From Pauljensenia sp. (GTDB lineage Bacteria; Actinomycetota; Actinomycetes; Actinomycetales; Actinomycetaceae): DNA of 64,000 bases. The notes beneath the pieces were generated by a model. The model did no database searches and was not told where the DNA came from. It saw nothing but the letters and a program-made list of their open reading frames with translations. The first letter of the stretch is position 1; every line of letters starts with the position of its first letter. Position numbers and translations under genes: made by a program. Location of the stretch: NCBI GenBank assembly GCA_042645485.1, contig JBHRQN010000003.1:2450-66449 (forward strand), written 5' to 3'. Of the stretch, positions 5,505 through 53,022 are shown in pieces.

Positions 5505-6602
5505 ATGAAGACCCTCACCAAATTTGTTGCGGTCGCCGGCGTCGCAACTCTCGCGCTGACCGCGTGCTCATCCGGCCAGAAGGCCTCGTCAGAATCTAGC
5601 TCTGACGCAGCATCGAAGGGCGCAAGCTTCAAGGCTTGTGCAGTGTCGGACGCAGGCGGTTGGGACGACAAGTCCTTCAACGAGTCCGCATACAACGGTC
5701 TGAAGGCCGCACAGTCCAAGCTCGGTATTCAGATCAACACGGCAGAGTCCTCCTCCTCGGCAGACTTCGTGCCCAACACCGAATCCATGGTTTCCGACGG
5801 CTGCAACCTGATCATCGGCGTTGGCTTCAACCTCGAGAAGGCGCTCCACGCCTCTGCAAATGAGAATAAGGATGTTCACTACGCACTGGTTGACTCCTCC
5901 TTCTCTGATGATTCCAACAAGACCGTCACCGTCGAGAACGCACGCCCACTGCTCTTCAACACCGCTGAAGCCGCCTACCTTGCGGGTTACGCCGCAGCAG
6001 GCATGTCCAAGACCGGCAAGGTTGCCACCTTCGGTGGTATCCAGATTCCTTCGGTTACCGTCTTCATGGACGGCTTTGCCGATGGTGTTGCCGCCTACAA
6101 CAAGGCCAAGGGCACCAATGTCCAGGTCCTCGGTTGGGATAAGGCAACTCAGAACGGCTCCTTCACCCAGTCCTTCGATGACCAGGCACTGGGCAAGCAG
6201 CAGGCACAGCAGTTCATCGACCAGGGCGCTGACATCATCATGCCCGTCGCCGGCCCCGTGGGCCTGGGTGCAGCAGCAGCTGCACAGGCTGATGGCAAGA
6301 CCTACATCATCGGTGTTGACTCCGACTGGTACGAATCTGCCCCCGACTACAAGTCGATCGTTCTGACCTCGGTCAAGAAGGAAATTGGTGCTTCGGTTGA
6401 GCAGGTAATCACGGACTCCGTGAACGGCAAGTTCACTGCAACCCCCTACGTGGGCACCCTGGAAAACGGTGGCGTTTCCATCGCTCCCTTCCACGATTTC
6501 GACTCCAAGGTTCCCTCGGATCTGAAGGATGAGCTGACCAAGCTCACCGATCAGATCAAGAAGGGCGAGCTGAAGGTTGAGTCCGCAAACTCCCCGAAGT
6601 GA
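5505..6602 (+). CDS. BMP-family (PnrA-like) ABC substrate-binding lipoprotein, probable nucleoside binding
   Basis: ORF 5418-6602 trimmed to ATG 5505 behind GGAGGA. Lipobox LALTAC. BMP-family sequence. Followed by a double-ATPase and two permeases. Confidence 0.85.
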   Translation: MKTLTKFVAVAGVATLALTACSSGQKASSESSSDAASKGASFKACAVSDAGGWDDKSFNESAYNGLKAAQSKLGIQINTAESSSSADFVPNTESMVSDGCNLIIGVGFNLEKALHASANENKDVHYALVDSSFSDDSNKTVTVENARPLLFNTAEAAYLAGYAAAGMSKTGKVATFGGIQIPSVTVFMDGFADGVAAYNKAKGTNVQVLGWDKATQNGSFTQSFDDQALGKQQAQQFIDQGADIIMPVAGPVGLGAAAAAQADGKTYIIGVDSDWYESAPDYKSIVLTSVKKEIGASVEQVITDSVNGKFTATPYVGTLENGGVSIAPFHDFDSKVPSDLKDELTKLTDQIKKGELKVESANSPK

Positions 6603-8269: not shown

Positions 8270-9531
8270 TGACCGCGGTAAAGCGTCCTTCGAAGGCACT
8301 GATTGTGTGCCGTCATATCTTGGGATCGCGATGGTTCGTTTCCATCCTTGCGGTTCTCATCGCCTTCGCTATCGGAGCCATTCTGATCGCAATGACCGGT
8401 GCATCGGTACTCGATGCCTACTATGCGATGTTCCGCGGAGCGATCTTTGATCCAAGCGCCCGTAGTTTCCAGCGTCAGATCAAACCTTTGACAGAGTCCC
8501 TGTTCTTCTCCATCCCCTTGGTATTGGGTGGTTTGGGCCTTGCTTTGGGCTTCCGCGCGGGCCTGTTCAATATCGGTGGTAAAGGCCAGATTATCTTTGG
8601 TGCTCTTGCTGCTGTCTGGGTTGGCTTCGCAATGAACCTCCCGCCCGTCGTTCACACTCTTGTTGCTCTTCTTGCGGCGATGGTTGCTGGTTCGCTCTAT
8701 GCGGGAATTGCCGGTGTTCTTAAGGCAAAGACCGGGGCAAACGAAGTCATTGTCACCATCATGCTGAACTCGATTGCGACCTTGGCGCTGGGCTACATCC
8801 TCTCGAAGAAGTCGTGGCAGGTTCCCGGTTCTAATCAACCTCAAACCCCGAAGGTCGCGGATTCGGCTGCCTTCACCCGCATCTTGGATGCCCCCTTCAA
8901 GATCCACGTTGGTCTTTTCATTGCCCTCCTCGCCGTCATCGTTTTCTGGTGGCTTATTGAGCGCTCGACCCTTGGATTTGAAATCCGCGCAGTTGGTGCC
9001 AACCCCGAAGCCGCACGTACCGCTGGTATCTCAGTCGGAAAGATCACCGCAATTACCATGGCGATCTCCGGCGCTTTCCTGGGACTTGCAGGTGCGAACG
9101 AGGCCTTGGGCACCGTTGGTTACGTCTCACGAGACATCGCAGGCTCCATTGGTTTCGACGCCATCACCGTTGCTCTTCTGGGCCGCAATAAGCCTCTGGG
9201 CACTCTGGGTGCAGGTATCCTCTTCGGTGCCTTCAAAGCCGGTGGTTACACCATGCAGGCCAAGGGTGTTCCGATCGATATGATCTTGATCCTCCAGTCA
9301 GTGATCGTCTTGCTGATCGCAGCTCCCATGCTGGTCCGCTGGCTCTTCCATCTGCCAAAGGAAACTAAGAAGAGCTTGCGTGCTGAGCTCGCTGAACTCA
9401 GCGGTGAGCGCACTGAAGAAGACGGGAAGACCCCGGCCATGGCCTCGGCAGTAAAGGAAGACGCAGCATCCAAGGGCGGCGATGCCGCCATCGATGATGC
9501 CTCCGCCGATACGGAAGGAGAGGCACGATGA
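8269..9531 (+). CDS. ABC transporter permease (nucleoside importer, subunit 1)
   Basis: Polytopic membrane ORF. ATGA start/stop overlap with the ATPase gene. Confidence 0.85.
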   Translation: MTAVKRPSKALIVCRHILGSRWFVSILAVLIAFAIGAILIAMTGASVLDAYYAMFRGAIFDPSARSFQRQIKPLTESLFFSIPLVLGGLGLALGFRAGLFNIGGKGQIIFGALAAVWVGFAMNLPPVVHTLVALLAAMVAGSLYAGIAGVLKAKTGANEVIVTIMLNSIATLALGYILSKKSWQVPGSNQPQTPKVADSAAFTRILDAPFKIHVGLFIALLAVIVFWWLIERSTLGFEIRAVGANPEAARTAGISVGKITAITMAISGAFLGLAGANEALGTVGYVSRDIAGSIGFDAITVALLGRNKPLGTLGAGILFGAFKAGGYTMQAKGVPIDMILILQSVIVLLIAAPMLVRWLFHLPKETKKSLRAELAELSGERTEEDGKTPAMASAVKEDAASKGGDAAIDDASADTEGEAR

Positions 9532-10802
9532 GCCAGACGCGCGCAATGAATGACGTTCAGCTCAAGCGCTCGTGGAAGATGCCGGTTGTCTACGTTCTGG
9601 CAGCCCTTCTTCAGATTCTTTTTGTCGTCAAGGTCAGTGGCGATGTCACCATCAGGCTTAATGACAAGTCCCAGAGCATCAATATCGACGACATTGTGAC
9701 CCCCGGTCGTCCCATCCTTCTGGTACTGACGGTGCTCACTCTTGTGGTGACGGCATGGTCGATCTACTCGGTGTGGGCACGTCGGCAAAATCCACGGTGG
9801 CTTGACGTCACCATGATGATCGTTGCCGGAATTGCGACGGTATTTGGCTTCTTGATCTACGCGGGTTCGGGCTCGGCCGGTGTTGTCACACTGACCTCCA
9901 CCCTCTACTCCACAGTGGCCATCTCGACGCCTCTGATCTTCGGCTCACTTTCGGGCGTTGTCTCCGAACGCGTTGGCGTTGTCAATATCGCCATTGAAGG
10001 TGACCTGCTCTTGGGTGCTTTCGCAGGCGTCATGGCAGCGTCCTTCTTCCAGACCTCGTGGGCAGGTTTGATCGCCGCTCCGATCGCAGGCGCATTCCTT
10101 GGCTGCCTCTTGGCGCTCTTCTCGGTCAAGTACGGCGTGGATCAGATCATCGTCGGTGTGGTTTTGAACGTCCTAGCAGCGGGTCTGACGACCTTCTTCT
10201 ATGGAACGTGGATGACGAAGAAGCCCGAACTGTTCAACACCAACAGGTTCTCGCTCCCAGACATCAAAATCCCGCTCCTAGGTGAGATCCCAATTCTTGG
10301 TCCCGTGCTCTTCAACCACAACATCTTGGTGTACCTGATGTACGCCACGGTGATCTTCCTGGCGGTCTACCTTTACCGCTCGCGCTGGGGCCTGCGCCTT
10401 CGCGCCTGCGGTGAGCACCCGCGAGCCGCCGATACCGTGGGAATCAACGTCAATCGCACGCGAACCCTCAATGCGATCCTCGCTTCTGGTTTTGCTGGAT
10501 TGGGTGGTGCATTCTTCACCATCGGCTCGAGCCTCTCCTTCACTGACAATATCTCCGCAGGTAACGGCTACATCGCCCTTGCGGCAATGATTTTGGGCAA
10601 GTGGCACCCGATCGGTGCTATGAGCGCAGCGCTCATGTTCGGTTTCGCCCAGGCGCTCGCTCGCTTGCTGCCCAACCTTGAGCAGTCCATTCCTTCGGAC
10701 CTGATTTCGATGATTCCTTACATCGTGACCATCATTGCGGTCGCTGGATTCGTTGGGAAGTCGCGTCCGCCGGCAGCCGAAAATATTCCTTACACGAAGT
10801 GA
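9528..10802 (+). CDS. ABC transporter permease (nucleoside importer, subunit 2)
   Basis: Polytopic membrane ORF. ATGA overlap with the preceding permease gene. Confidence 0.85.
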   Translation: MSQTRAMNDVQLKRSWKMPVVYVLAALLQILFVVKVSGDVTIRLNDKSQSINIDDIVTPGRPILLVLTVLTLVVTAWSIYSVWARRQNPRWLDVTMMIVAGIATVFGFLIYAGSGSAGVVTLTSTLYSTVAISTPLIFGSLSGVVSERVGVVNIAIEGDLLLGAFAGVMAASFFQTSWAGLIAAPIAGAFLGCLLALFSVKYGVDQIIVGVVLNVLAAGLTTFFYGTWMTKKPELFNTNRFSLPDIKIPLLGEIPILGPVLFNHNILVYLMYATVIFLAVYLYRSRWGLRLRACGEHPRAADTVGINVNRTRTLNAILASGFAGLGGAFFTIGSSLSFTDNISAGNGYIALAAMILGKWHPIGAMSAALMFGFAQALARLLPNLEQSIPSDLISMIPYIVTIIAVAGFVGKSRPPAAENIPYTK

Positions 10803-18157: not shown

Positions 18158-18228
18158 TCCGCCTTGGTGTAACGGCAGCACAGAGGTTTTTGGTGCCTTT
18201 AGTCTAGGTTCGAATCCTAGGGGCGGAG
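18158..18228 (+). tRNA. tRNA-Gln (anticodon UUG)
   Basis: Hand-folded cloverleaf. Acceptor TCCGCCT/GGGCGGA, T-arm CTAGG-TTCGAAT-CCTAG, anticodon stem GAGGT/GCCTT, loop TTTTGGT. CCA is not encoded. Confidence 0.85.
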
Positions 18229-41972: not shown

Positions 41973-42020
41973 ACGCCCCGTTGGGATTCCCCAACGGGGC
42001 GTTTGCTGTTGTTCGTTTTC
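41973..42020 (+). terminator. Rho-independent terminator after glgP
   Basis: ACGCCCCGTTGGG-ATTC-CCCAACGGGGCGT followed by a T-rich tail. Confidence 0.85.
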
Positions 42021-42026
42021 CGAGCA

Positions 42027-42087
42027 AACTGTATTACTGTGTTGACACAGTTTCGATAGTGTGGCACTGTATTAGTGTATTAATACA
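42027..42087 (+). promoter_or_regulatory. Candidate YtrA-type operator/promoter region
   Basis: TTGACA at 42042-42047. Direct repeat ACTGTATTA at 42028-42036 and 42066-42074. Inverted repeat AACTGT (42027-42032) / ACAGTT (42047-42052). Perfect palindrome TGTATTAATACA at 42076-42087, about 22 nt before the GntR start. Confidence 0.45.
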
Positions 42088-42109
42088 GATAGACAGGAGG
42101 GATACACCG

Positions 42110-42475
42110 ATGCGCATCGATGACACCCGTCCAATCTGGATCCAATTAGCTGATTCGTTCCGCGGTCGTATTACCGACGGTACGTGGAAACCTGGCGAAA
42201 AGATCCCCTCCGTGCGTGATCTCGCGATCGAGGCAGGCACCAATCCCAATACCGTTCAGCGAGCTCTGAGTGCACTTGACGAAGAAGGGCTGACGGTCCC
42301 GAAGCGGACCGCAGGGCGTTTTGTCGCAACTGACGAGTGCGCTCTGCATGCCCTGCGGAAGAACGACGCGCATCTTGCGGCAGATGCCTACATTCGCGCA
42401 TGTCGTTCACTGGGAATCGATCTGGAAGGTGCTCGGGCTCTGATCGATCAACGTTGGGATGCCACGGAGAAGTAG
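42110..42475 (+). CDS. GntR-family transcriptional regulator, short YtrA subfamily
   Basis: Trimmed to ATG 42110 behind AGGAGG. wHTH KIPSVRDLAIEAGTNPNTVQRALSALDEEGL. Only about 121 aa. Confidence 0.85.
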   Translation: MRIDDTRPIWIQLADSFRGRITDGTWKPGEKIPSVRDLAIEAGTNPNTVQRALSALDEEGLTVPKRTAGRFVATDECALHALRKNDAHLAADAYIRACRSLGIDLEGARALIDQRWDATEK

Positions 42476-42491
42476 CCAAGGAGGCAAACTC

Positions 42492-43220
42492 ATGACCACA
42501 CAAACTGAGCGCGGAACGTGTATGGGGCAAGACCTCGTCCACGTTGAGCATCTCACGAAGCATTACCGGAAAACGCCAGCTCTGCGGGACTATTCGCTGT
42601 CACTGGATTCCGGGCACATCGTCGGTCTGATGGGTCCCAACGGATGTGGGAAAACGACGCTGCTGAAAATCCTTGCAGGAGTGCTGAATGATTACCAAGG
42701 ACAGGTGAGTATCGACGGGCATACACCCGGAATCGGTACAAAATCTATTGTTTCGTACTTGCCTTCGGCAGCATTCCTTAACGGCGAATGGACCGTGGAG
42801 CGTGCGATTAACATCTACTCGCGATTCTTTACCGATTTTGAGCCGGAAAGAGCGCGAACCATGGTTGATTTCTTTCAACTCCCCGAAGGGCGACCACTCA
42901 GTGAGATGAGTAAGGGAATGGGGGAGAAGCTTCAAATCAGCCTGATCATGGCGCGCAAGGCGAAGGTTTTCTTGTTGGACGAGCCGATTAGTGGGGTAGA
43001 TCCGGCAACTCGCGACATTATCCTCGAGGGGATTTTGCGTGAGTTTGATCCCGAGTCACTGCTCATCATGTCAACCCACCTGATTTCGGATATCGAACAT
43101 TTCGTTGACTATGCGCTCTTCATGAAAGAGGGACAGGTTCTTCTGCACGGTGATGCGGATGATCTGCGTGCGACGCGTGGGGACTCTTTAGATGCGATTT
43201 TCAGGAAGGAATACCGCTGA
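42492..43220 (+). CDS. ABC transporter ATP-binding protein
   Basis: Trimmed to ATG 42492 behind AAGGAGG. Walker A GPNGCGKTT, signature MSKGMGEKL, Walker B FLLDEP. Confidence 0.88.
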   Translation: MTTQTERGTCMGQDLVHVEHLTKHYRKTPALRDYSLSLDSGHIVGLMGPNGCGKTTLLKILAGVLNDYQGQVSIDGHTPGIGTKSIVSYLPSAAFLNGEWTVERAINIYSRFFTDFEPERARTMVDFFQLPEGRPLSEMSKGMGEKLQISLIMARKAKVFLLDEPISGVDPATRDIILEGILREFDPESLLIMSTHLISDIEHFVDYALFMKEGQVLLHGDADDLRATRGDSLDAIFRKEYR

Positions 43221-44032
43221 TGTTCGGGAAAATGCTGTCTTATGAAATCGGTAGTCGCCTGCGCACTGATCTTCGTCAAATGGGGACCGCTATTGCGATC
43301 CTTGCCGTGACGGTCGGTGTTGTCGCAAGTGGAGTCCCGGGACTGAGCGGGACGATGACCATGTTTGGCTACCTGATGTGCGTAGCTATTCCTGTGGGTA
43401 TCGCGATCAGTGGAATGAGCGACTACTGGAAGACCCTCTACGGACAACAGGGGTACTTCACCATGACTCTGCCCGTGTCAGGTGCCGTGATCTACTGGGC
43501 AAAGGTCAGCCGAATGATCATCGAGTTCCTCGTCGCACTTGCCTTAGCCATCGGCGGGGGCATTGCAGTTGCTTGGGCAGCGGCATGGAGTCAGGGAATC
43601 ACCCTCGCCGACTACACTGCCGGCCCGCGTTCGCTATTTGCGATTTTTTCGACTCTGGCGCTTGCGGTTTTGTTTATTACCTGGATCGTTTCGTGTATTG
43701 CGCTGATTCTTCAGGTCTGTGCGGTCATGAGTATTGCGGCCGAAGGGCGCTTCAACCACATGGGCTTCGGTGCGGTGGCTATCGGATTGGTCCTGCTCTA
43801 CATCGTTGACCAGGTTTTGAGCGGAATTGGAACCTTTTTCATGCCCTTCTCAATGACTCTCGACGGCCATTTCAGTACCGAGGTTATGTGGACGTCATAT
43901 CGCGCGACTTTGGGAACTGATGGGTATCCCAATGTTTGGGGAATGGGCGCATGCATTTTAGTCCCTCTCTTTGCACTATTCCTAGCAGTGTGGGCCTCAC
44001 GCTCGATTGAAAAGAGAACCTCATTGCGTTAA
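43220..44032 (+). CDS. ABC-2-like polytopic membrane protein (putative permease partner)
   Basis: About 6 TM segments. 1-nt start/stop overlap with the ATPase gene. No recognisable motif. Confidence 0.6.
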   Translation: MFGKMLSYEIGSRLRTDLRQMGTAIAILAVTVGVVASGVPGLSGTMTMFGYLMCVAIPVGIAISGMSDYWKTLYGQQGYFTMTLPVSGAVIYWAKVSRMIIEFLVALALAIGGGIAVAWAAAWSQGITLADYTAGPRSLFAIFSTLALAVLFITWIVSCIALILQVCAVMSIAAEGRFNHMGFGAVAIGLVLLYIVDQVLSGIGTFFMPFSMTLDGHFSTEVMWTSYRATLGTDGYPNVWGMGACILVPLFALFLAVWASRSIEKRTSLR

Positions 44033-44787: not shown

Positions 44788-45663
44788 ATGAATTTTGCGA
44801 CAGCAGTGGCTCAGCCTAATTTCTCGGCTACTCCGCAAAACCCTGATCTGCTCAGATGGGTTGGAATTCAAGTCGCAGTTGTCGTGCTTGCTTGGCTCAT
44901 CGGTATGATCGTTCGCCGTTTCTTGGCCTCGCGAATGACAATGTCCACTGCCTCCGCAACCTTAACTGGCATGCTTGGTATTTGGACTGGACTCCTCTTT
45001 GCGGGTTGGATTTTTTCCGACTCCGATATTTGGCGCCCGGCCATGATCGGTGTTTCGACAGCGGTTGCCATCATTGTTGTCACTGTCTGCGCTCTCATCG
45101 TCGCCTATCTGCATCCGCTTCCCGGCCTTGATCCGATCGCTGACGTTGCCGCGCGAGGAGAATCTGATACGCGCGAATTTAAGTCCAGCGCGCGCTGGAA
45201 TATGCATACCCAGCAACGGGATGATGCGATGGAGACCGTCATTGCCAAGACTGTTGCTGCCTTCATGAATTCCGGTGGCGGAACACTCCTCATCGGTGTT
45301 GATGATGATGGAAAACTCATCGGCTTAGGCCCGGACTATGCGACCTTGAAGAGCCCTGACGCTGATTGTTTTGAACTGTGGATTCGTGATCTGTGGGGAC
45401 AGCGTCTTGGAACTAACGCTGCCGCGTTACCGAGCATCGACTTTGCTCCCGCTACGGATCCCCAAGAGGGTTACGAGGCCCAGGAGGTGTGCCGCGTGGC
45501 TGTTCCTCCCAGCCCGAGGCCGGTTTACCTCCTTGGCCCCAAGGGTAAGGGAACACCCGAGCTGTGGGTTCGCGTGGGGAACTCAACGCGGCGCCTCGAA
45601 ATTCCAGATGCGGTTGAATACATTGCTCACCGCTGGCCTTCTAGCATGCGCACGACATTCTAG
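44788..45663 (+). CDS. Membrane-anchored AlbA_2 / Schlafen-like (AAA_4 N-terminal type) domain protein
   Basis: Three N-terminal TM segments, then ESDTREFKSS...IAKTVAAFMNSGGGTLLIGVDDDGKLIGL, resembling the AlbA_2 divergent-DNA-binding domain core. Confidence 0.6.
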   Translation: MNFATAVAQPNFSATPQNPDLLRWVGIQVAVVVLAWLIGMIVRRFLASRMTMSTASATLTGMLGIWTGLLFAGWIFSDSDIWRPAMIGVSTAVAIIVVTVCALIVAYLHPLPGLDPIADVAARGESDTREFKSSARWNMHTQQRDDAMETVIAKTVAAFMNSGGGTLLIGVDDDGKLIGLGPDYATLKSPDADCFELWIRDLWGQRLGTNAAALPSIDFAPATDPQEGYEAQEVCRVAVPPSPRPVYLLGPKGKGTPELWVRVGNSTRRLEIPDAVEYIAHRWPSSMRTTF

Positions 45664-45785
45664 GGTCGTATTCGCATGTTCCTCTTTACCAGGGGAGGGC
45701 GGCGTGAGCGTCCGGCCGCTCTACCGCGTTCTGTTCAGCGGATCTTGGCGGACTCGGAGGAGTAAGAACCCTCAAAGGGCAGATT

Positions 45786-45815
45786 TAATAAAAACGTATA
45801 AACTATGTTTTATTA
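45786..45815 (+). promoter_or_regulatory. AT-rich imperfect inverted repeat upstream of the DUF2249 gene
   Basis: TAATAAAAAC-N11-GTTTTATTA, about 55 nt before ATG 45870. AT content is strikingly high for this genome. Confidence 0.3.
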
Positions 45816-45869
45816 GAAGCTGATGCTCAGGCGCTTCATTCAGTCGCCGAGCCCCACGAAAGGGATCTC

Positions 45870-46211
45870 ATGATCGAACCTAATTCCGACCTGCCCGAAT
45901 TCGAACTTCGTGATGTTTCTGCCGAAAAGGCCCAGGAGCCTGCTCAGTCCGGTGGATGCGGTTGCGGTTGCGATCACGGTGCTCAGCTTCCGCGATTGGA
46001 TGCACGTCCCTTCCCGCCTCGCCTGCGTCACCCCGCAATCTTGGGTGCCGTTTCTTCTCTGAACGTCGGCGAGGCCATGGAGCTGGTTGCGCCTCACGTG
46101 CCCACGCCGCTTCTTAACCAGATCGATATGACGCTGGAAGGTGAGTTTGCCTACGAACTGGTTGCCGTCAGCGATGAAGGTGCGATTGTTAAAATCTCCC
46201 GCGTTGGCTGA
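45870..46211 (+). CDS. DUF2249-family small protein
   Basis: N-terminal GGCGCGCDHG then LDARPFPPRLRHPAILGAVSSLNVGEAMELVAPH, resembling DUF2249. Confidence 0.65.
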   Translation: MIEPNSDLPEFELRDVSAEKAQEPAQSGGCGCGCDHGAQLPRLDARPFPPRLRHPAILGAVSSLNVGEAMELVAPHVPTPLLNQIDMTLEGEFAYELVAVSDEGAIVKISRVG

Positions 46212-46290
46212 TCAGGAGGTATAGACTGCTCACCTTGAGAGCTTGCGTTCATTCATTAGTACGGGATCGCGCAGGTTCATAGGGGAGTTG

Positions 46291-46330
46291 AAGCGTCCGG
46301 TAGTGGCACACTACCGGACGCTTGTTTTGG
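46291..46330 (+). terminator. Rho-independent terminator; also the left edge of the low-GC island
   Basis: AAGCGTCCGGTAGTG-GCA-CACTACCGGACGCTT followed by GTTTTGG. Confidence 0.85.
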
Positions 46331-46361
46331 GGTGCTGACTGCATGACGGGGTGTGTGACTG

Positions 46362-46391
46362 TTGACGATATTTCTAGGTGAAAAATAAAAT
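46362..46391 (+). promoter_or_regulatory. Candidate sigma-70-type promoter at the island entry
   Basis: TTGACG (46362-46367), 18 nt spacer, TAAAAT (46386-46391). Confidence 0.35.
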
Positions 46392-46655
46392 GTGATACTA
46401 ACGGTCTTTCTGGCGCTTGTGAGAAATTAGGTGTTGAGCTCACGTAGCTTTGGATGAGAGTTACTTTTGTTTCACTTCCCAGTTCAAGTCAAACTTACTT
46501 AGCTGATATTCTTTAGATTTGTAGATTCTGTTTCAGCCGTATGATAGGCTCAATACAACCGGCGAGGTCATAGCATAGAGGCTCCTTGTGCCGTGAACTG
46601 GTGTTGGTGTTATTTTTGTTATTTTTCTGCATGTTTGCGGAGGCGCGCTAAGGAA

Positions 46656-47408
46656 ATGCATACGAAAATTGAGCGGAGGCGACTGATATGGCTCGTATTG
46701 CTTGCTATCTGGCTACTTGTCGTATTGCTTCTGAATTGCTGGGCTTATTTTTTGCTGAGAAATCGACTTGCAGGGAGTGGTCTTGATCCTAATTTGGTCG
46801 TTAAAGTTCTAACAATACCTTTCTTGATGTTCGTCATTTCGTTTCTTTTTCGTTTAGAAAGTGGAAAGGTGAGGAAAGGAGGAGTTGGAGAAAAGATCTG
46901 GGTTGTCCCGTGTGGTCTATATGTGTTCTATTTGGCCGCATATTGTGTTTTCTATGATCTGACGGAGAGCTTTAAAGGCTCGGTGCGCTCATTTTCGGCG
47001 GTGAGTGGCATTATTTCGCCGTATGAAGTGACTATACTATCGTGGATACCACCTTTCGTTATCTCGGTCTTAATACTGTGTTCATCTTTCGAGAGCTTTT
47101 ATTTCAAGCTAGGGTACTATGCGTCTTTCGTTGGCGGTGCGCTCGCAGTTTCAGCCGTATTTCTCCAGGGCTTTCTAAATTCGCTCACACTGCTGGAAAT
47201 TGAGTGCGGTACGCTCGTTGATGAGAAATTTTACCCGCAATGTCAGCAAGAAATTCCGATATTCCATTTTACCCTTGCTGGTTTAGGATCTTTACTTATC
47301 CTTTTCTTAATCGTTTTTTCTTATCTACGGCGAAATCAACGATTAGAAAACATTTTAAAAATAAAACATATTCTCGGGAGTGTGACGATAGGTAAGCGTC
47401 GGCAATAA
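46656..47408 (+). CDS. Hypothetical 6-TM membrane protein with a Cys-containing loop before the last TM (island paralog A)
   Basis: ORF 46593-47408. Start ambiguous: GTG 46593 adds a Cys/aromatic-rich NWCWCYFCYFSAC, ATG 46656 follows AAGGAA. Low GC, no family recognised. Loop LLEIECGTLVDEKFYPQCQQEIPIF. Confidence 0.6.
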   Translation: MHTKIERRRLIWLVLLAIWLLVVLLLNCWAYFLLRNRLAGSGLDPNLVVKVLTIPFLMFVISFLFRLESGKVRKGGVGEKIWVVPCGLYVFYLAAYCVFYDLTESFKGSVRSFSAVSGIISPYEVTILSWIPPFVISVLILCSSFESFYFKLGYYASFVGGALAVSAVFLQGFLNSLTLLEIECGTLVDEKFYPQCQQEIPIFHFTLAGLGSLLILFLIVFSYLRRNQRLENILKIKHILGSVTIGKRRQ

Positions 47409-48032
47409 GGAGTTTTGGGTTACAAATCAATGGTTTAAGCGTGCTTATGCAACCTCTGCCATTGGTGTGTGTAGCGTATATTAACGGAGGCGGCATGTAT
47501 TGCGTACTTAGTTGCTTGATTACGCGTCGGTGTGTCTTTATGTACGATGTTGCTAAGTAAAAGAATATGATGTAATCAAGCGAATACTTGAAAATTGGTG
47601 TGCGGAATTCGGCCGTTTTAAGCTGTGGGAGAAGTTGAGTGCATTGCGATGCTTGTGGAAGTTGCTTGTTGCTTATTAAATAAGGTTGTTTGGGGTTAGG
47701 TGCATTATTGCTCTTGTGAAGTTAGTTAGTGGTTGGTGCGTCAGTCAGAATATATTAGTGTTCTGCTTGGTTTAATTATCTTCCTGCTAGGGGTCTTGAT
47801 TCCTTTTTCGAATTCTGAATATGTTGAGCAAGAGTATTGGCTGAACGTTAGAGTCAGGTGTTTTAATTTTCTGTTTTCAGTATGGTGATGTTGCATTTCT
47901 CCTCGCTATCCGTTTGTCTTTCCTCTGGATCTTCATAAGTGAGAGAGTGAAATTTCTACTTCAATCCGCGGATCGCAGTCAGTGAAGCGTGTCAAAAAAG
48001 ACTGTAATGTCGGTTGGATTTAGAATCTGCGT

Positions 48033-48985
48033 ATGAGTGTTCAGAGTCGACGCAAACCAAGCAAGCTATGTACCGCAATTGTCTACGGGGTAATCTGGGC
48101 TGGTTTGTTGGCTCTTATAGTTTGCTGTGTTTGCGGAACAGTTGCAGAGATTAGGACTCAGGATGAGGGGCGTTATACCGGGGGGGGTATATCGCCCTGT
48201 ACCTTTTCTTCCTACTTATCCTTGCGGTTTTTAGATCTTGCAGGACGGGAGGGGTCGAGGCGTCGAAGTGGCTGTATCTAACAGTGCAGTTGCTGAATTT
48301 TACCGTTCTTTTGGGGGTGTTTAGAGGCGTACTACGCCTTGCAGGTGGGAATGGTTTCGCCTTCTTCCTCGGTAATCCGGAACCTGGAGTTGTTTCCCTC
48401 TATGAAGCGTTCTTTATTTGGTTTCTTTTCCTGGTCGGCGCAGCTCTTCAGATGCTGTCGGTGATGAATGATAAGTATCGAAACGAAATACGTATCGGTG
48501 TCGGCGGCATATTGTTCATCATCAGTATTTTTCTACCGAACATGCTCAGTTCGTTTGCGTTACTACGGGCAATGTGCAGGCGCCCGCTACCGGAAGGGAC
48601 GTGTATCAAGGAGCAATGTCAAACACAAGCAATTGAAACAATCCCGATGTTCACAATGGCAATTGCGTTTTCAGCGGCATTAGCGGTTCTGTTCTTCTTT
48701 ACTATGTTCTCGCCTACAATCGAGCGTTTCATTAGTTCACTAACCGGTGATGGTACTAACGCGAGAGAATCTGGATCGCTTTCAGATGCTCTGGAAGGCG
48801 CTCAGACTCAGCAAAATCTGCCAGGACAAGAGCTTGAAACTGCAGCGCTACCTTCCTCTGCTGAGCCACTACCGCCTGCAGCGAATCGTCATAGCCCTTG
48901 TGGAATTTTTACCGCTGCTGTCCTTGGAGGAGTCGTCGTCTGGGCGATCCAAGCGATTGGAGAACGAACGACCAAACACCGATAA
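48033..48985 (+). pseudogene. Island paralog B: 6/7-TM Cys-loop membrane protein split by a frameshift at a G8 tract (ORFs 48033-48281 and 48284-48985)
   Basis: The frame of the 48284 ORF is open back to 48188, immediately after the G run. One extra G (or two fewer) fuses both ORFs into about 317 aa with a hydrophobic segment YIALYLFFLLILAVF across the junction. Confidence 0.7.
48180..48187 (+). repeat. Homopolymeric G8 tract inside island paralog B
   Basis: Read directly: ...TATACC GGGGGGGG TATATC... Confidence 0.95.
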
Positions 48986-49073
48986 GTCGCTTGCATGCAC
49001 TTGGAACGAATTCTGAATGGAGGCGTGAGTCAAGACGCTATTCTTGAAGAATAACGTTCACACGGAGGCTGGT

Positions 49074-50153
49074 ATGCGCAAAACTCTCCCCAACGACATC
49101 AAAGAAATCCTCGCAAGCGGGGACGTTGAGGCCGTGGCTGAGGCAGTGAAAAACTGCGAGATCGGCGCATATCTGCGGAGCGAATACGGAAAGCCCAAGC
49201 TCTTGCACCTCCTCTGCTCGCAAGAGATCGTCGAGTTCTTGGTCGCTCGAGGCGAGGACATCAACTGTCGCAATGAACGCGGACAAACTCCCATTCACTG
49301 CCGCGTCACGCAACGTCGACCCGATCTGATCCCCGGTCTCATTGCCCTTGGCGGCGATATCAATGCCCGAGATAACACGGACCAAACTCCGTTGTTCGGC
49401 GCTGTCGAACGCCTAGACGCGCCTGAGGTAGAACAGATGATCCAATGGGGCGCTGACCCTACTCTCGATGCGCATTCAAAGATCTATGGGGACTACACCC
49501 TGACGAAGTACGCGCTCAGTTGGTACAACTTGTTTGATTCGCCCAGAATCCTGCGTATTTTCAAAGTTTTATGCGCTCATGGCGCACACCCAAGCGGTGA
49601 GGAATATAAAGCTCTTCAAGCCATGGATAAAGATCGCTGCTCGATCATCGCCCACAGCCCCGAAGACGCTAACAATCCCCGCTTCCTCGAAGCCGCGGAA
49701 GCCTTGCGACAGCTGTGCGAAATGTTCGGCGTCGCTCAGCAAGTTGCGCGTCCCGCCCCAAGCGTTGGAGAAAAGCTCGAGCTCGATCCTTCAAAGAGCT
49801 GGAAGAAACTTTCCAACGAACTCTGGGACTTGCTAGTTCCACTTGATAATCAGGCCGAGACACTTCAAGGCGAAGCCATCAGGATCACGGGCAAGGTTGC
49901 CTACGAGGTCTACGACAATGGCGGCATTAACTGGGAACCGACCTTTAACGCACTTCTCCAGCAATTCCTCGAGATCATTTCCTCCGAGGTCCCCCTCAGT
50001 GCAGACGAGCTTGCGCGCGCCAAGCAAGCAGTGGGGGACCTTCAGGGAGGAAAATCAACCGAGGCCAGCGATGTCTTGAGGGAAGCCGCTGTTCACTGGG
50101 TGTTTGCCAATCCTGTCTTGTACGCAAACACCCTGCCTTTCCTTGGCCGGTAA
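49074..50153 (+). CDS. Ankyrin-repeat protein with an uncharacterised C-terminal domain
   Basis: Trimmed to ATG 49074 behind GGAGG. Ankyrin repeats (GEDINCRNERGQTPIH, GGDINARDNTDQTPLFGAV, WGADPTL). No signal peptide. Confidence 0.75.
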   Translation: MRKTLPNDIKEILASGDVEAVAEAVKNCEIGAYLRSEYGKPKLLHLLCSQEIVEFLVARGEDINCRNERGQTPIHCRVTQRRPDLIPGLIALGGDINARDNTDQTPLFGAVERLDAPEVEQMIQWGADPTLDAHSKIYGDYTLTKYALSWYNLFDSPRILRIFKVLCAHGAHPSGEEYKALQAMDKDRCSIIAHSPEDANNPRFLEAAEALRQLCEMFGVAQQVARPAPSVGEKLELDPSKSWKKLSNELWDLLVPLDNQAETLQGEAIRITGKVAYEVYDNGGINWEPTFNALLQQFLEIISSEVPLSADELARAKQAVGDLQGGKSTEASDVLREAAVHWVFANPVLYANTLPFLGR

Positions 50154-50162
50154 ATACCAGCT

Positions 50163-51878
50163 TTACTCTTCGCTGCCCTTACGGCGGCGCACCCGCTTTC
50201 GTGGTGCGGGCGAGTGCTCGCCTCGGCCTCGGCCCTTGGTTCCGCGGTCAGAACGTCCCTGCTTTCCGGAATTCAGTGTCTGATCACCATCCTTGCGGGT
50301 ACGGCGTCGGGTGCGAGTCCGCTCGCCGGAAGCTGAACGCTCCCTGCGTCCTCCCGAGCGGGCGGAGGAACGACCACCGCGGCCTCGGCCTCGTCCACGG
50401 CGGGAAGGAGCGCCCAAATCCTCAAGCTTTTCGGCGCCAAGTCCCTCGCGCGTACGCTTCGCACGAGGCAAGCGCCCAGTGACGTCCTCGGGAATATCCA
50501 AGTCCGTGTACAGGTGCGGCGAGGTGTGGTAGGTCTCCAGAGGTTCGGGAACTCCCAAGCCTAGCGCCTTCGAAATCAACGACCAGCGCGGGACATCGTC
50601 CCAATCCACGAAGGTCACGGCTGTACCAGAATTCCCCGCGCGACCGGTGCGACCAATGCGGTGGATGTAGACCTTCTCGTCCTCGGGGCACTGGTAGTTG
50701 ATGACGTGGGTGACATCGTCAACGTCGATGCCACGCGCAGCAACATCGGTTGCAACCAAAACATCGACCTTGCCATTACGGAAAGCACGTAGAGCCTGCT
50801 CGCGCGCACCCTGACCGAGGTCGCCGTGAAGTGCGGCAACCGCGAAACCGCGCTCGCTGAGCTCGTCGGCAACGCGCGCAGCCGCACGCTTGGTACGACA
50901 GAAAATCACAGCGCGACCGCGGCCTCGTGCCTGCAAGATACGCGCAACGATCTCGGTCTTGTTCATGGCGTGAGCGCGGTAGATCACCTGCTGGACCGTG
51001 TTGACGGTCTGTCCCTGATCGTCAGGATCTTGCGCGCGAATATGGGTCGGCTGGGTCATGAACTTACGAGCCAGCGTGATCACCGGGCCGGGCATGGTTG
51101 CCGAGAAAAGCATCATGTGACGGTCCGCGGGAATACGCGAAAGCAAAGTTTCCACGTCCGGGAGGAAGCCCAGGTCAAGCATCTCGTCGGCCTCGTCAAG
51201 GACAACGTTTTCCACGCCGTTCAGGTGCAGCACGCCTTGACGGAGCAAATCGATCAAACGCCCGGGGGTACCGACGACGATATCCGCGCCTCGCTTGAGT
51301 GCGTCAATCTGGGGTTCAAAAGCAACGCCGCCGTAGATGTCAACGATGCGCGTCGACAGGTGCGAGGCTGCCGCCCGGAGATCTTCGGCCACCTGCTTGG
51401 TGAGCTCGCGGGTCGGCAAAATGATGAGTGCCTGCGGCATATTCGGATTGAGAAGGTCCTCGTAGCCCTCTTCATCCGGGGCGATGACGTCTTCTAAGAC
51501 GGGGATGCCAAATCCCAGAGTCTTACCGGTACCGGTCTTGGCCTGACCGATGATGTCGTGGCGATCCAGTGCGACGGGAAGAGTCAGGGCCTGGATCGGG
51601 AAGGGGTGGGTGATGCCGCGTTCTTCAAGCGCATCAACGATGGGGTCACTGACCCCGAAATCAGCGAAAGACTTCGCTTCGAAAGTTTCATTTCCCGAGT
51701 TCGTAATATCGGGGGTGGTTTCATCTTCTTGGGTCGAAGGGGCTTTGATTGAGCCCAAACGTACGACGCCAGCAGAGTAGTCAGACGGTGAAGTCACGAT
51801 CAACCTGTTCTGGGAAAAACCCGTTGGAAATTGCAGCCGATCGCGGTTCTTCTTCAAGGGGCATAGGTGCCCGGGCAA
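50163..51878 (-). CDS. DEAD-box ATP-dependent RNA helicase with an Arg/Gly-rich C-terminal tail
   Basis: Q motif FPIQ, AKTGTGKT, VLDEADEMLD, SAT, HRIGRTGRAG. True start uncertain (possibly an internal GTG/TTG upstream of the Q motif). Confidence 0.88.
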   Translation of the reverse strand: MPGHLCPLKKNRDRLQFPTGFSQNRLIVTSPSDYSAGVVRLGSIKAPSTQEDETTPDITNSGNETFEAKSFADFGVSDPIVDALEERGITHPFPIQALTLPVALDRHDIIGQAKTGTGKTLGFGIPVLEDVIAPDEEGYEDLLNPNMPQALIILPTRELTKQVAEDLRAAASHLSTRIVDIYGGVAFEPQIDALKRGADIVVGTPGRLIDLLRQGVLHLNGVENVVLDEADEMLDLGFLPDVETLLSRIPADRHMMLFSATMPGPVITLARKFMTQPTHIRAQDPDDQGQTVNTVQQVIYRAHAMNKTEIVARILQARGRGRAVIFCRTKRAAARVADELSERGFAVAALHGDLGQGAREQALRAFRNGKVDVLVATDVAARGIDVDDVTHVINYQCPEDEKVYIHRIGRTGRAGNSGTAVTFVDWDDVPRWSLISKALGLGVPEPLETYHTSPHLYTDLDIPEDVTGRLPRAKRTREGLGAEKLEDLGAPSRRGRGRGRGGRSSARSGGRRERSASGERTRTRRRTRKDGDQTLNSGKQGRSDRGTKGRGRGEHSPAPRKRVRRRKGSEE

Positions 51879-52888: not shown

Positions 52889-53022
52889 TGATTGGGGTTA
52901 ACTTTTCACTCTCATGGTACGTGAGGAGGAAAGCGGCGCTGGGGGATTTCAGTGTCAGCGTAATTTCGCTTAGAAGCCCAAAGTGGTCTCCAAATGCCGG
53001 TGGCCTCTGTCAAAATCACTAT

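Follow-up and report, generated by a model that had tools for sequence, protein, structure and literature searches.

Phase-variable genes with poly-G or poly-C tracts are known in Campylobacter, Neisseria and Haemophilus. Homopolymeric-tract phase variation has also been described in Mycobacterium tuberculosis (Mtb), in the 7C tract of glpK and in other tracts (10.1101/717272; PMC10334774). We analyzed a 64,000-nt stretch of DNA from a metagenome-assembled genome (MAG) of Pauljensenia sp. (hereafter the window). Its interval 46332–49030 is low in GC and contains two genes for polytopic membrane proteins, A and B, just upstream of an ankyrin-repeat gene (Ank). We put the probability at about 0.55 that this interval represents, in local form, a two-gene module native to and conserved in Actinomycetaceae of the Schaalia/Pauljensenia type, and that this module is hypervariable and of contingency type, with B off in this genome.

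The likeness to contingency loci lies in gene B. It has a short intragenic G run, the length of which differs by single nucleotides between near-identical strains and puts the frame in or out. As with the Mtb tracts, the carrier is an actinobacterium, and as with the Gram-negative examples, the product is predicted to be surface-exposed. Unlike those loci, B is in frame with a tract of just six nucleotides (G6), and the tract is confined to one allele lineage; its protein family is unrelated to known phase-variable genes, and the switching is putative. A full-text literature search for homopolymer switching of this kind in Actinomyces, Schaalia and Pauljensenia returned nothing relevant. With this locus, the Actinomycetaceae would join the small number of actinobacteria in which there is evidence for switching by homopolymers.

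Three other systems were compared. Wzy and Wzx, encoded by O-antigen and capsule genes of Enterobacteria, are polytopic proteins with 10–14 transmembrane (TM) helices, encoded at a fixed locus with conserved flanks; they diverge between strains and are lower in GC than the genome. The family of A and B likewise occupies a fixed chromosomal locus, diverges extremely beside conserved flanks and has a persistently lower GC content. It differs in showing no similarity to them in sequence or fold, in having 6–7 TM helices rather than 10–14, and in being paired with an ankyrin gene. It also lies outside glycan-synthesis clusters, save for one adjacent GT4 gene in one clade. TsaI (DUF443) of Staphylococcus aureus belongs to the tandem polytopic immunity proteins of polymorphic toxin/type VII secretion systems. 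These are also small polytopic membrane proteins with a variable number of divergent tandem copies, but the family studied here has no neighboring toxin or secretion gene, shows no homology to them, and is usually a single copy at a syntenic site. Pentameric Cys-loop channels have a large N-terminal ligand-binding domain, a 13-residue Cys loop and four TM helices. Only a cysteine pair in an extracytoplasmic loop is shared with them, and the resemblance is in name only. The original prediction, made from the letters of the window, had called A and B Cys-loop membrane proteins; that name should not suggest the pentameric receptor family, which is unrelated and was rejected on the 6-TM core, the lack of an extracellular domain and the lack of a Pfam match.

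Literature searches found no description of this family or locus. The kind of system, a hypervariable surface gene with a homopolymer switch, is known. What is new is the protein family, its fixed pairing with an ankyrin gene, the persistent compositional anomaly and the occurrence in Actinomycetaceae.

The low-GC interval and the ankyrin-linked protein family

The GC content of the interval 46332–49030 was 0.445, compared with 0.557 for the whole window. This was the minimum among all 2.7-kb windows of the 64 kb, and only those overlapping the interval fell below 0.50. In 400-nt windows, GC was 0.385–0.445 at 46400–48000 and 0.46–0.50 up to about 48800, with both flanks at 0.52–0.59. GC at third codon positions (GC3) was 0.414 for A (z −3.7) and 0.43–0.47 for B (z −2.7 to −3.4), versus 0.60 ± 0.05 for 44 other open reading frames (ORFs). 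The permease gene at 43220, also polytopic and nearby, had a normal GC3 of 0.609, indicating that the GC dip is not explained by the amino-acid content of membrane proteins. The sharp drop noticed in the original prediction was therefore real and unique in the window.

The left edge of the interval is a hairpin with a T-rich tail (46291..46330, + strand), located 3' of the DUF2249 gene. It consists of a 15-bp perfect stem with a 3-nt loop (46291–46323), followed by TTGTTTTG. It had been taken for a terminator, and the inverted repeat was confirmed, though a terminator scan made no call there because of the weak T tail. The right edge had been placed at the ankyrin gene (49044..50153, + strand; likely start ATG 49074). 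GC is indeed normal there, but this gene is no island edge, being the conserved neighbor of the family in all clades.

The relatives fell into three groups. Group 1 is the window's own species complex (L001–L004, L011–L015), and group 2 comprises six Schaalia, Pauljensenia and "Actinomyces sp." genomes of about 65% GC (L005–L010). Group 3 is more distant (L016–L018); its family member (M) is 27% identical, with GntR–ABC–permease genes upstream and Ank directly before M. The genome scan used a narrower alignment, the patterns of which did not match the B subfamily, and recovered the window's species only through L011. A family member was located beside Ank in all loci of these three Actinomycetaceae clades. 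The gene order in relatives was (GntR–ABC–permease) ... AlbA_2/DUF2249, Ank, family member, ... DEAD-box helicase, ferritin-like, and the order from AlbA_2/DUF2249 to the ferritin-like gene was found in L001, L003, L005–L012 and L014. The window's own GntR–ABC–permease genes are at 41981–44032.

In all of these genomes, with overall GC contents of 55–66%, the family member had 41–50% GC and a GC3 of 0.35–0.57, versus 0.65–0.92 for its neighbors. The same site and the same low GC in all relatives indicated that low GC is a lasting property of a resident gene rather than a sign of recent import. The original prediction had proposed a foreign island, which would be refuted if the region were conserved in relatives with native composition. 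The region was conserved, but its composition was not native. As for presence or absence in relatives, only a cassette containing A varied between strains; the family member itself was always at the locus.

A recently acquired foreign island is thus scarcely probable and, for B, largely refuted. The atypical composition and the variable A cassette speak for it, and so does a recent transfer within the species. Between the window and L012, the AlbA2–DUF2249–A–B block (44788–48985) had a synonymous divergence (dS) of 0, while Ank and DEAD just downstream had a dS of about 0.28, indicating a recent exchange by recombination whose breakpoint lies between B and Ank. Against an island stand the shared locus and partner gene in every relative, the low GC in genomes of 55% and 66% GC alike, and the restriction of the family to this group (38 representatives among 1.84 billion clusters). 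Homologues were not found in phage, plasmid or viral-contig collections. As the original prediction had already stated, the low-GC stretch contained no integrase or transposase ORF (ORF list, Pfam) and was flanked by no meaningful direct repeats (repeat scan); the tRNA nearest to it is at 18158. Among the usual marks of a genomic island, only the atypical composition was found; mobility genes, tRNA and repeats were lacking, and the locus was not missing from relatives.

Gene A (46656..47408, + strand; GenBank MFC2730284.1) is intact. Its longest ORF is 46593–47408 with a likely start at ATG 46656, and its 250-aa product is predicted to have 6 TM helices with both termini inside. Gene B (48033..48985, + strand) is frameshifted in the window and consists of two ORFs, 48033–48281 (82 aa) and 48284–48985 (233 aa, MFC2730285.1). 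Homologues of the 3' part are typically 300–350 aa and align from about residue 84 on, indicating that the 82-aa 5' ORF belongs to B; a look-up found no protein record for this ORF. Two polytopic genes had been expected and were found, but B is not the single ORF that had evidently been read through the frameshift.

The repaired B protein and A matched by BLASTP at E 1e-6 (65 residues, 34% identity) in a segment that comprises TM5, the Cys loop and TM6, so the shared TM5–TM6 motif noted earlier is real. In A, the end of TM5, a two-Cys outer loop and the start of TM6 (SLTLLEIECGTLVDEKFYPQCQQEIPIFHF) are encoded at 47181..47270 (+ strand). Profiles of the A group and the B/M family aligned with an hhalign probability of 97.7% (E 1.8e-12, 198 columns), and the family hidden Markov model (HMM) picked up A at E 9.5e-11. 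Together with the BLASTP match, these results identified A as a distant, shorter paralogue of the family, so that the suspected paralogy held, at a distance.

No known family was recognized, as had been said of both proteins. Pfam-A and NCBIfam searches with A, B and 19 family members gave a best E of 0.003 or worse, each in a single member, and nothing that reached a curated threshold; PADLOC gave no match, and PHROGs gave one weak match (E 0.003). Database names of the members were no better than "hypothetical" or "membrane protein". An AlphaFold 2 model of B had a mean confidence (pLDDT) of 72, with helices at 85–94, and showed six core helices, a disordered linker (242–299) and a C-terminal helix. 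A Foldseek search with this model (threshold E ≤ 0.001) gave a best PDB match of E 0.5 with a template modeling (TM) score below 0.3, and a best BFVD match of E 0.03 with a TM score of 0.19.

A and B were thought to have the same layout. The 6-TM core is common to both, but B adds a disordered linker of about 55 residues and a seventh, C-terminal hydrophobic helix. Positive charges were found in the N terminus, in loops 2 and 4 and in the tail of A, and acidic residues and the Cys pair in loops 1, 3 and 5. This pattern predicts that the N terminus is inside, that loops 1, 3 and 5 face outward and that the conserved cysteines are part of loop 5; in A, both ends are predicted to be inside. The motifs kept across the family are G-x-VS-x-YE, GILMPKLLESYS and the Cys pair.

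Most family members carry the disordered linker and the C-terminal helix besides the 6-TM core. This C-terminal module was truncated repeatedly (M of L006, a downstream copy in L011 and a 269-aa form of B), which suggests that the 6-TM core, the architecture of A, is the functional unit. The conserved C terminus reads ..(V/L)(P/S)KQLMGAAVSGLVAGACFSVVNRLFNRR, and ..HSPCGIFTAAVLGGVVVWAIQAIGERTTKHR in B. The last ~30 residues, ..PKQLMGAAVSGLVAGACFSVVNRLFNRR (alignment A2 columns 395–424), were far better conserved than the rest of the protein. Six core helices with the N terminus inside would put the basic C-terminal tail outside, which is unusual. A sortase sorting signal was rejected, despite a similar layout of hydrophobic helix plus basic tail, as the C terminus contains neither LPXTG nor LAXTG.

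Allelic diversity and the poly-G tract of gene B

Among the six species of 65% GC, protein identities were 77–95% for AlbA2, 86–93% for Ank, 95–98% for DEAD and 88–100% for the ferritin-like protein, and only 38–53% for M. A profile search in the species complex of the window found about 90 clusters (90% identity) of B alleles, which were 311–317 aa long and 62–98% identical to the window's B. The adjacent Ank formed three clusters, all of at least 83% identity. Column entropy over 92 alleles was highest in loop 1 (1.64 bits), TM2 (1.17) and loop 5 (1.04), and lowest in the N terminus, TM3 and loop 3. The sequence for the end of TM5, the three-Cys outer loop and the start of TM6 of B (48551..48658, + strand) is one of the two most variable parts among alleles. 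Several alleles were mosaic. Over three segments, identities to the window's B were 75/99/100% for P0164, 99/95/75% for P0172 and 70/93/98% for P0169. Pairwise ratios of nonsynonymous to synonymous divergence (dN/dS) were 0.45–0.62 for B and 0.31 for A, and 0.00–0.25 for most flanking genes.

The frame of B is broken at a G8 tract (48180..48187, + strand), the sole homopolymer of 7 nt or more in the 64 kb. It lies in the codons of predicted outer loop 1; the 5' part of the gene runs from 48033 to the tract, and the 3' part is 48188–48985. Tract length was polymorphic from G5 to G8 in eight independent assemblies with identical flanks: G5 in L001, G6 in L014, L015 and L019, G7 in L012, L013 and L020, and G8 in the window. 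Only G6 is in frame. It would join the two parts of the window's B into a 316-aa protein with the 6-TM core, the linker and the C-terminal helix, and intact, near-identical 316-aa proteins (P0161, P0162) read ...RYTGGYIALY... at this site. G7 gave gene calls of only 273 aa, and G5 and G8 split the gene. In all five out-of-frame carriers, the frame 3' of the tract was still open, without secondary lesions downstream.

The rest of the sequence hardly differed. L013 was 99.8% identical to the window over 3.6 kb, and in up to 9 kb shared with L013, L014 and L015, the only indels were in the G run and in a T run of A. From AlbA2 through B, L012 had no synonymous difference from the window, yet it carried G7 and T7 instead of the window's G8 and T6, showing that the tract changed faster than point substitutions accumulated. 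B thus has a repeat inside its ORF, the repeat varies in length between identical flanks, and its length toggles the full-length product. These are the sequence hallmarks of a slipped-strand contingency switch, which the B tract may represent. Programmed ribosomal frameshifting was considered and rejected, since B also occurs in frame (G6) and the other tract lengths between them cover both of the other frames.

The T run of A (47314..47319, + strand) is T6 in the window and T7 in all five other contigs with this allele (L012–L015, L020). The loss of one T shifts the frame of the cytoplasmic tail, so that the last ~30 residues are changed and the protein is 250 aa long instead of the usual 246. 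The usual 246-aa product was found on 76 contigs, and A formed only four 90% clusters among 5.8 billion proteins.

Both G8 and T6 are private to this MAG in the protein collection, and homopolymers are error-prone, so both could be assembly or sequencing errors, with A and B intact in the organism. We regard this as very improbable. Over about 9 kb compared with four contigs, the window had no other homopolymer indel except a 1-nt G-run indel at 52894 versus L012, a contig that also had indels in the low-complexity tail of the DEAD gene. The same products were listed from NCBI and Logan sources. Other assemblies independently carry out-of-frame G5 and G7 tracts, so the tract varies whatever its true length in the window.

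Other lesions and changes in gene number were observed at the locus. In the lineage of the window, the family gene has multiplied. A and B are upstream of Ank, and other strains have a third copy, C, downstream. C is wholly missing in the window, where Ank ends 10 bp from the convergent DEAD gene. L011 has neither AlbA2 nor the A cassette; its B is intact (311 aa), its Ank is frameshifted, and the C copy 3' of Ank is truncated. In L002 and L003, A is 62% identical, B carries multiple frameshifts, Ank is reduced to a remnant, and C is intact. The sequence TCTGGA occurs twice at 48769..48794 (+ strand), as direct repeats 20 bp apart, and a 20-bp deletion between these repeats recurs in other strains. 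The B protein is then 269 aa long and lacks both linker and seventh helix; this form (for example WP_448758525.1) was found on more than 30 contigs.

These lesions raise the question of decay. A and B might be dispensable paralogues that decay under relaxed selection, with the G- and T-tract changes, the 20-bp deletion and the nonsense codons as irreversible hot-spot lesions and no switch. The several independent lesions fit this explanation, and so do dN/dS values of 0.3–0.6, the deletion of C in the window, the absence of A in L011 and the out-of-frame state of five of the eight tract-bearing contigs. It is less easily reconciled with a family member kept beside Ank in three clades, down to 27% identity, and with the survival of the conserved motifs listed above. 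Variability was concentrated in two predicted outer loops rather than spread evenly, the out-of-frame carriers had no secondary downstream lesions, and four tract lengths occurred on otherwise near-identical sequence. We consider decay unlikely, though a serious alternative.

Several points count against a contingency-type module. The poly-G tract was confined to one B allele lineage; other alleles read TGAY, TEGY or TQGY, and no comparable run was found in other B alleles or in other species. Slippage is therefore not built into the protein family. The two variants private to this MAG may be errors, as discussed. Gene-wide dN/dS was elevated but below 1, which alone cannot separate diversifying selection from relaxed constraint, and relaxed constraint alone could give much of the divergence. 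The lesions of B and Ank in L002 and L003, those of Ank and C in L011, the 20-bp deletion and a nonsense codon in M of L006 all look like plain decay. Finally, surface exposure is a prediction, and the whole locus was read from sequence alone.

Proposed role of the module

We propose a module of two partners, a cytoplasmic ankyrin-repeat protein and a polytopic membrane protein from an undescribed family. The membrane protein would be surface-exposed, with loops 1, 3 and 5 outside. An antagonist that recognizes these loops (a phage, a Saccharibacteria epibiont, a membrane-acting toxin or a host antibody) would select for novelty and loss through negative frequency-dependent selection. Variation would arise from two sources, allele shuffling through recombination and on/off switching by homopolymer slippage, which is putatively reversible. 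The ankyrin protein may be the intracellular partner of the linker or loops of the membrane protein. For the ankyrin protein, AlphaFold 2 with Foldseek and a PDB sequence search, aimed at its C-terminal half, gave only ankyrin/DARPin matches. In this genome, B would be off (G8), A altered (T6) and C absent.

Two observations on the Ank–M link were made in other records. A 575-aa metagenomic protein, P0034, joins the 16 N-terminal residues of an M-type protein to an entire ankyrin protein and an entire M protein. Whether an error of gene calling or a true fusion, it underlines the link. In L005 (S. odontolytica ORNL0103, isolated as a Saccharibacteria host), a gene for a 458-aa transposase/insertion sequence (8618–9994) is located exactly between Ank and M, where it may uncouple or re-drive M expression.

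Divergent paralogues at one locus may also suggest immunity genes. In an orphan immunity cluster, the polytopic proteins, perhaps with the ankyrin protein, would neutralize membrane-targeting polymorphic toxins or bacteriocins of competitors, and their diversity would track the toxins. The paralogues are tandem, divergent and variable in copy number, and a CPBP/Abi-type protease gene and an ABC module are nearby. Ankyrin-repeat proteins and membrane immunity arrays such as TsaI of S. aureus are known in polymorphic-toxin systems, which counts in favor of immunity. However, the Pfam-annotated neighbors (GntR, ABC, CPBP, AlbA_2, DUF2249, Ank, DEAD, ferritin-like) include no toxin, LXG/WXG, Rhs or bacteriocin gene, and PADLOC gave no match. 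Most species have a single copy at a fixed position and no array, and frequent loss of function is not expected for a protective gene. An immunity cluster is therefore quite unlikely. Among immunity, receptor and surface variation, the three functions guessed in the original prediction, a surface-variation module fitted best.

Schaalia and Pauljensenia abound in the human mouth and serve as the model hosts for Saccharibacteria epibionts. To our knowledge, the surface molecules that decide which strain an epibiont or phage parasitizes are largely unknown. The locus is a candidate for such a determinant: it is clade-restricted, contains the fastest-evolving gene of its neighborhood, and has mosaic alleles and variable predicted outer loops. 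The family gene is also apparently switched off or lost in some strains, and its neighbor is always an ankyrin-repeat gene. As a long shot, the Ank-linked membrane protein could be a host-side specificity determinant, either receptor or exclusion factor, for Saccharibacteria (TM7) epibionts or phages. If so, the narrow host range of these parasites, at the level of strains, would follow from the diversity of alleles, from on/off slippage and from repeated loss. As S. odontolytica can be manipulated genetically, the proposal is directly testable. In strain XH001, the ABC transporter APY09_06050/06055 is reported to be down-regulated by TM7x (PMC11032452), and it could not be mapped to this neighborhood. 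Literature searches for a link of the locus to TM7x/XH001 work or to Actinomyces phase variation returned nothing relevant.

The composition of the gene is of interest in its own right. A resident gene that stays at a GC3 of 35–50% amid genes of 65–90% for a long evolutionary time suggests an active compositional constraint or an escape from GC-biased conversion. Possible causes are that alleles are too divergent to recombine, which would let them escape such conversion, or that an AT-seeking silencer binds the gene. As a clean natural example, the locus lends itself to the question of why certain resident genes remain AT-rich where the genome is rich in GC.

The A cassette and neighboring genes

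The A cassette (46328..47974, + strand) contains a promoter-like site, gene A and most of the A–B spacer. Its limits are the blastn match boundaries between the window and L011. The hairpin described above forms its left junction. The window–L011 alignment ends at 46327, and L011 has about 95 bp of unrelated sequence in place of the cassette, which is thus present or absent between strains. A sigma-70-like promoter match (TTGACG, 18 nt, TAAAAT; 46362..46391, + strand) lies upstream of A. It is a consensus match only, and the scan found one match versus 4.1 in shuffled sequences.

The A–B spacer (47409..48032, + strand) has 41% GC. Searches of its six-frame translations with the family HMMs found no decayed paralogue. 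The 340–450 nt at its 3' end (47690–48030) had only two differences from L001, while A differed at about 11% of residues. A 51-aa hydrophobic ORF in this part (47733–47888) was identical in L001 and had no family match. The conserved part could be a regulatory region or encode a small protein. An Rfam scan of 46100–49100 (E ≤ 1) gave no match, indicating that the conserved spacer is not a known RNA.

L011 is NZ_JVLH01000012.1, a record that bears the name Trueperella pyogenes strain 331_TPYO. Identity to the window was 95–100% for the CPBP, DUF2249, DEAD and ferritin-like proteins, and about 15 kb aligned at 92–95% nucleotide identity. L011 is from the same species as the window or from a sister species, and the record is probably mislabeled or contaminated.

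A Schlafen/AlbA_2-domain protein with an N-terminal membrane segment is encoded at 44788–45663, and its gene is conserved by the module in most relatives. Neither L011 nor the distant clade has it, and HTH-peptidase M78, YbjQ or HEPN (ApeA) genes are found there in its zone. Between the ABC module and Ank, the sequence resembles a variable, defense-type hot spot.

On the other side of the locus, species of 65% GC have a malic-enzyme gene between M and DEAD (12056–13705 in L005). In L002, a scaffold with N's, only an N-terminal malic-enzyme fragment is left, and it adjoins a second C-terminal fragment of DUF2249 and a second start of Ank (5532–6360), which suggests a local duplication or rearrangement, or a scaffolding error. 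In the window, GC rises to 0.64–0.66 at 50000–50600, where the 3' end of the DEAD-box helicase gene encodes a tail rich in Arg, Gly and Ser.

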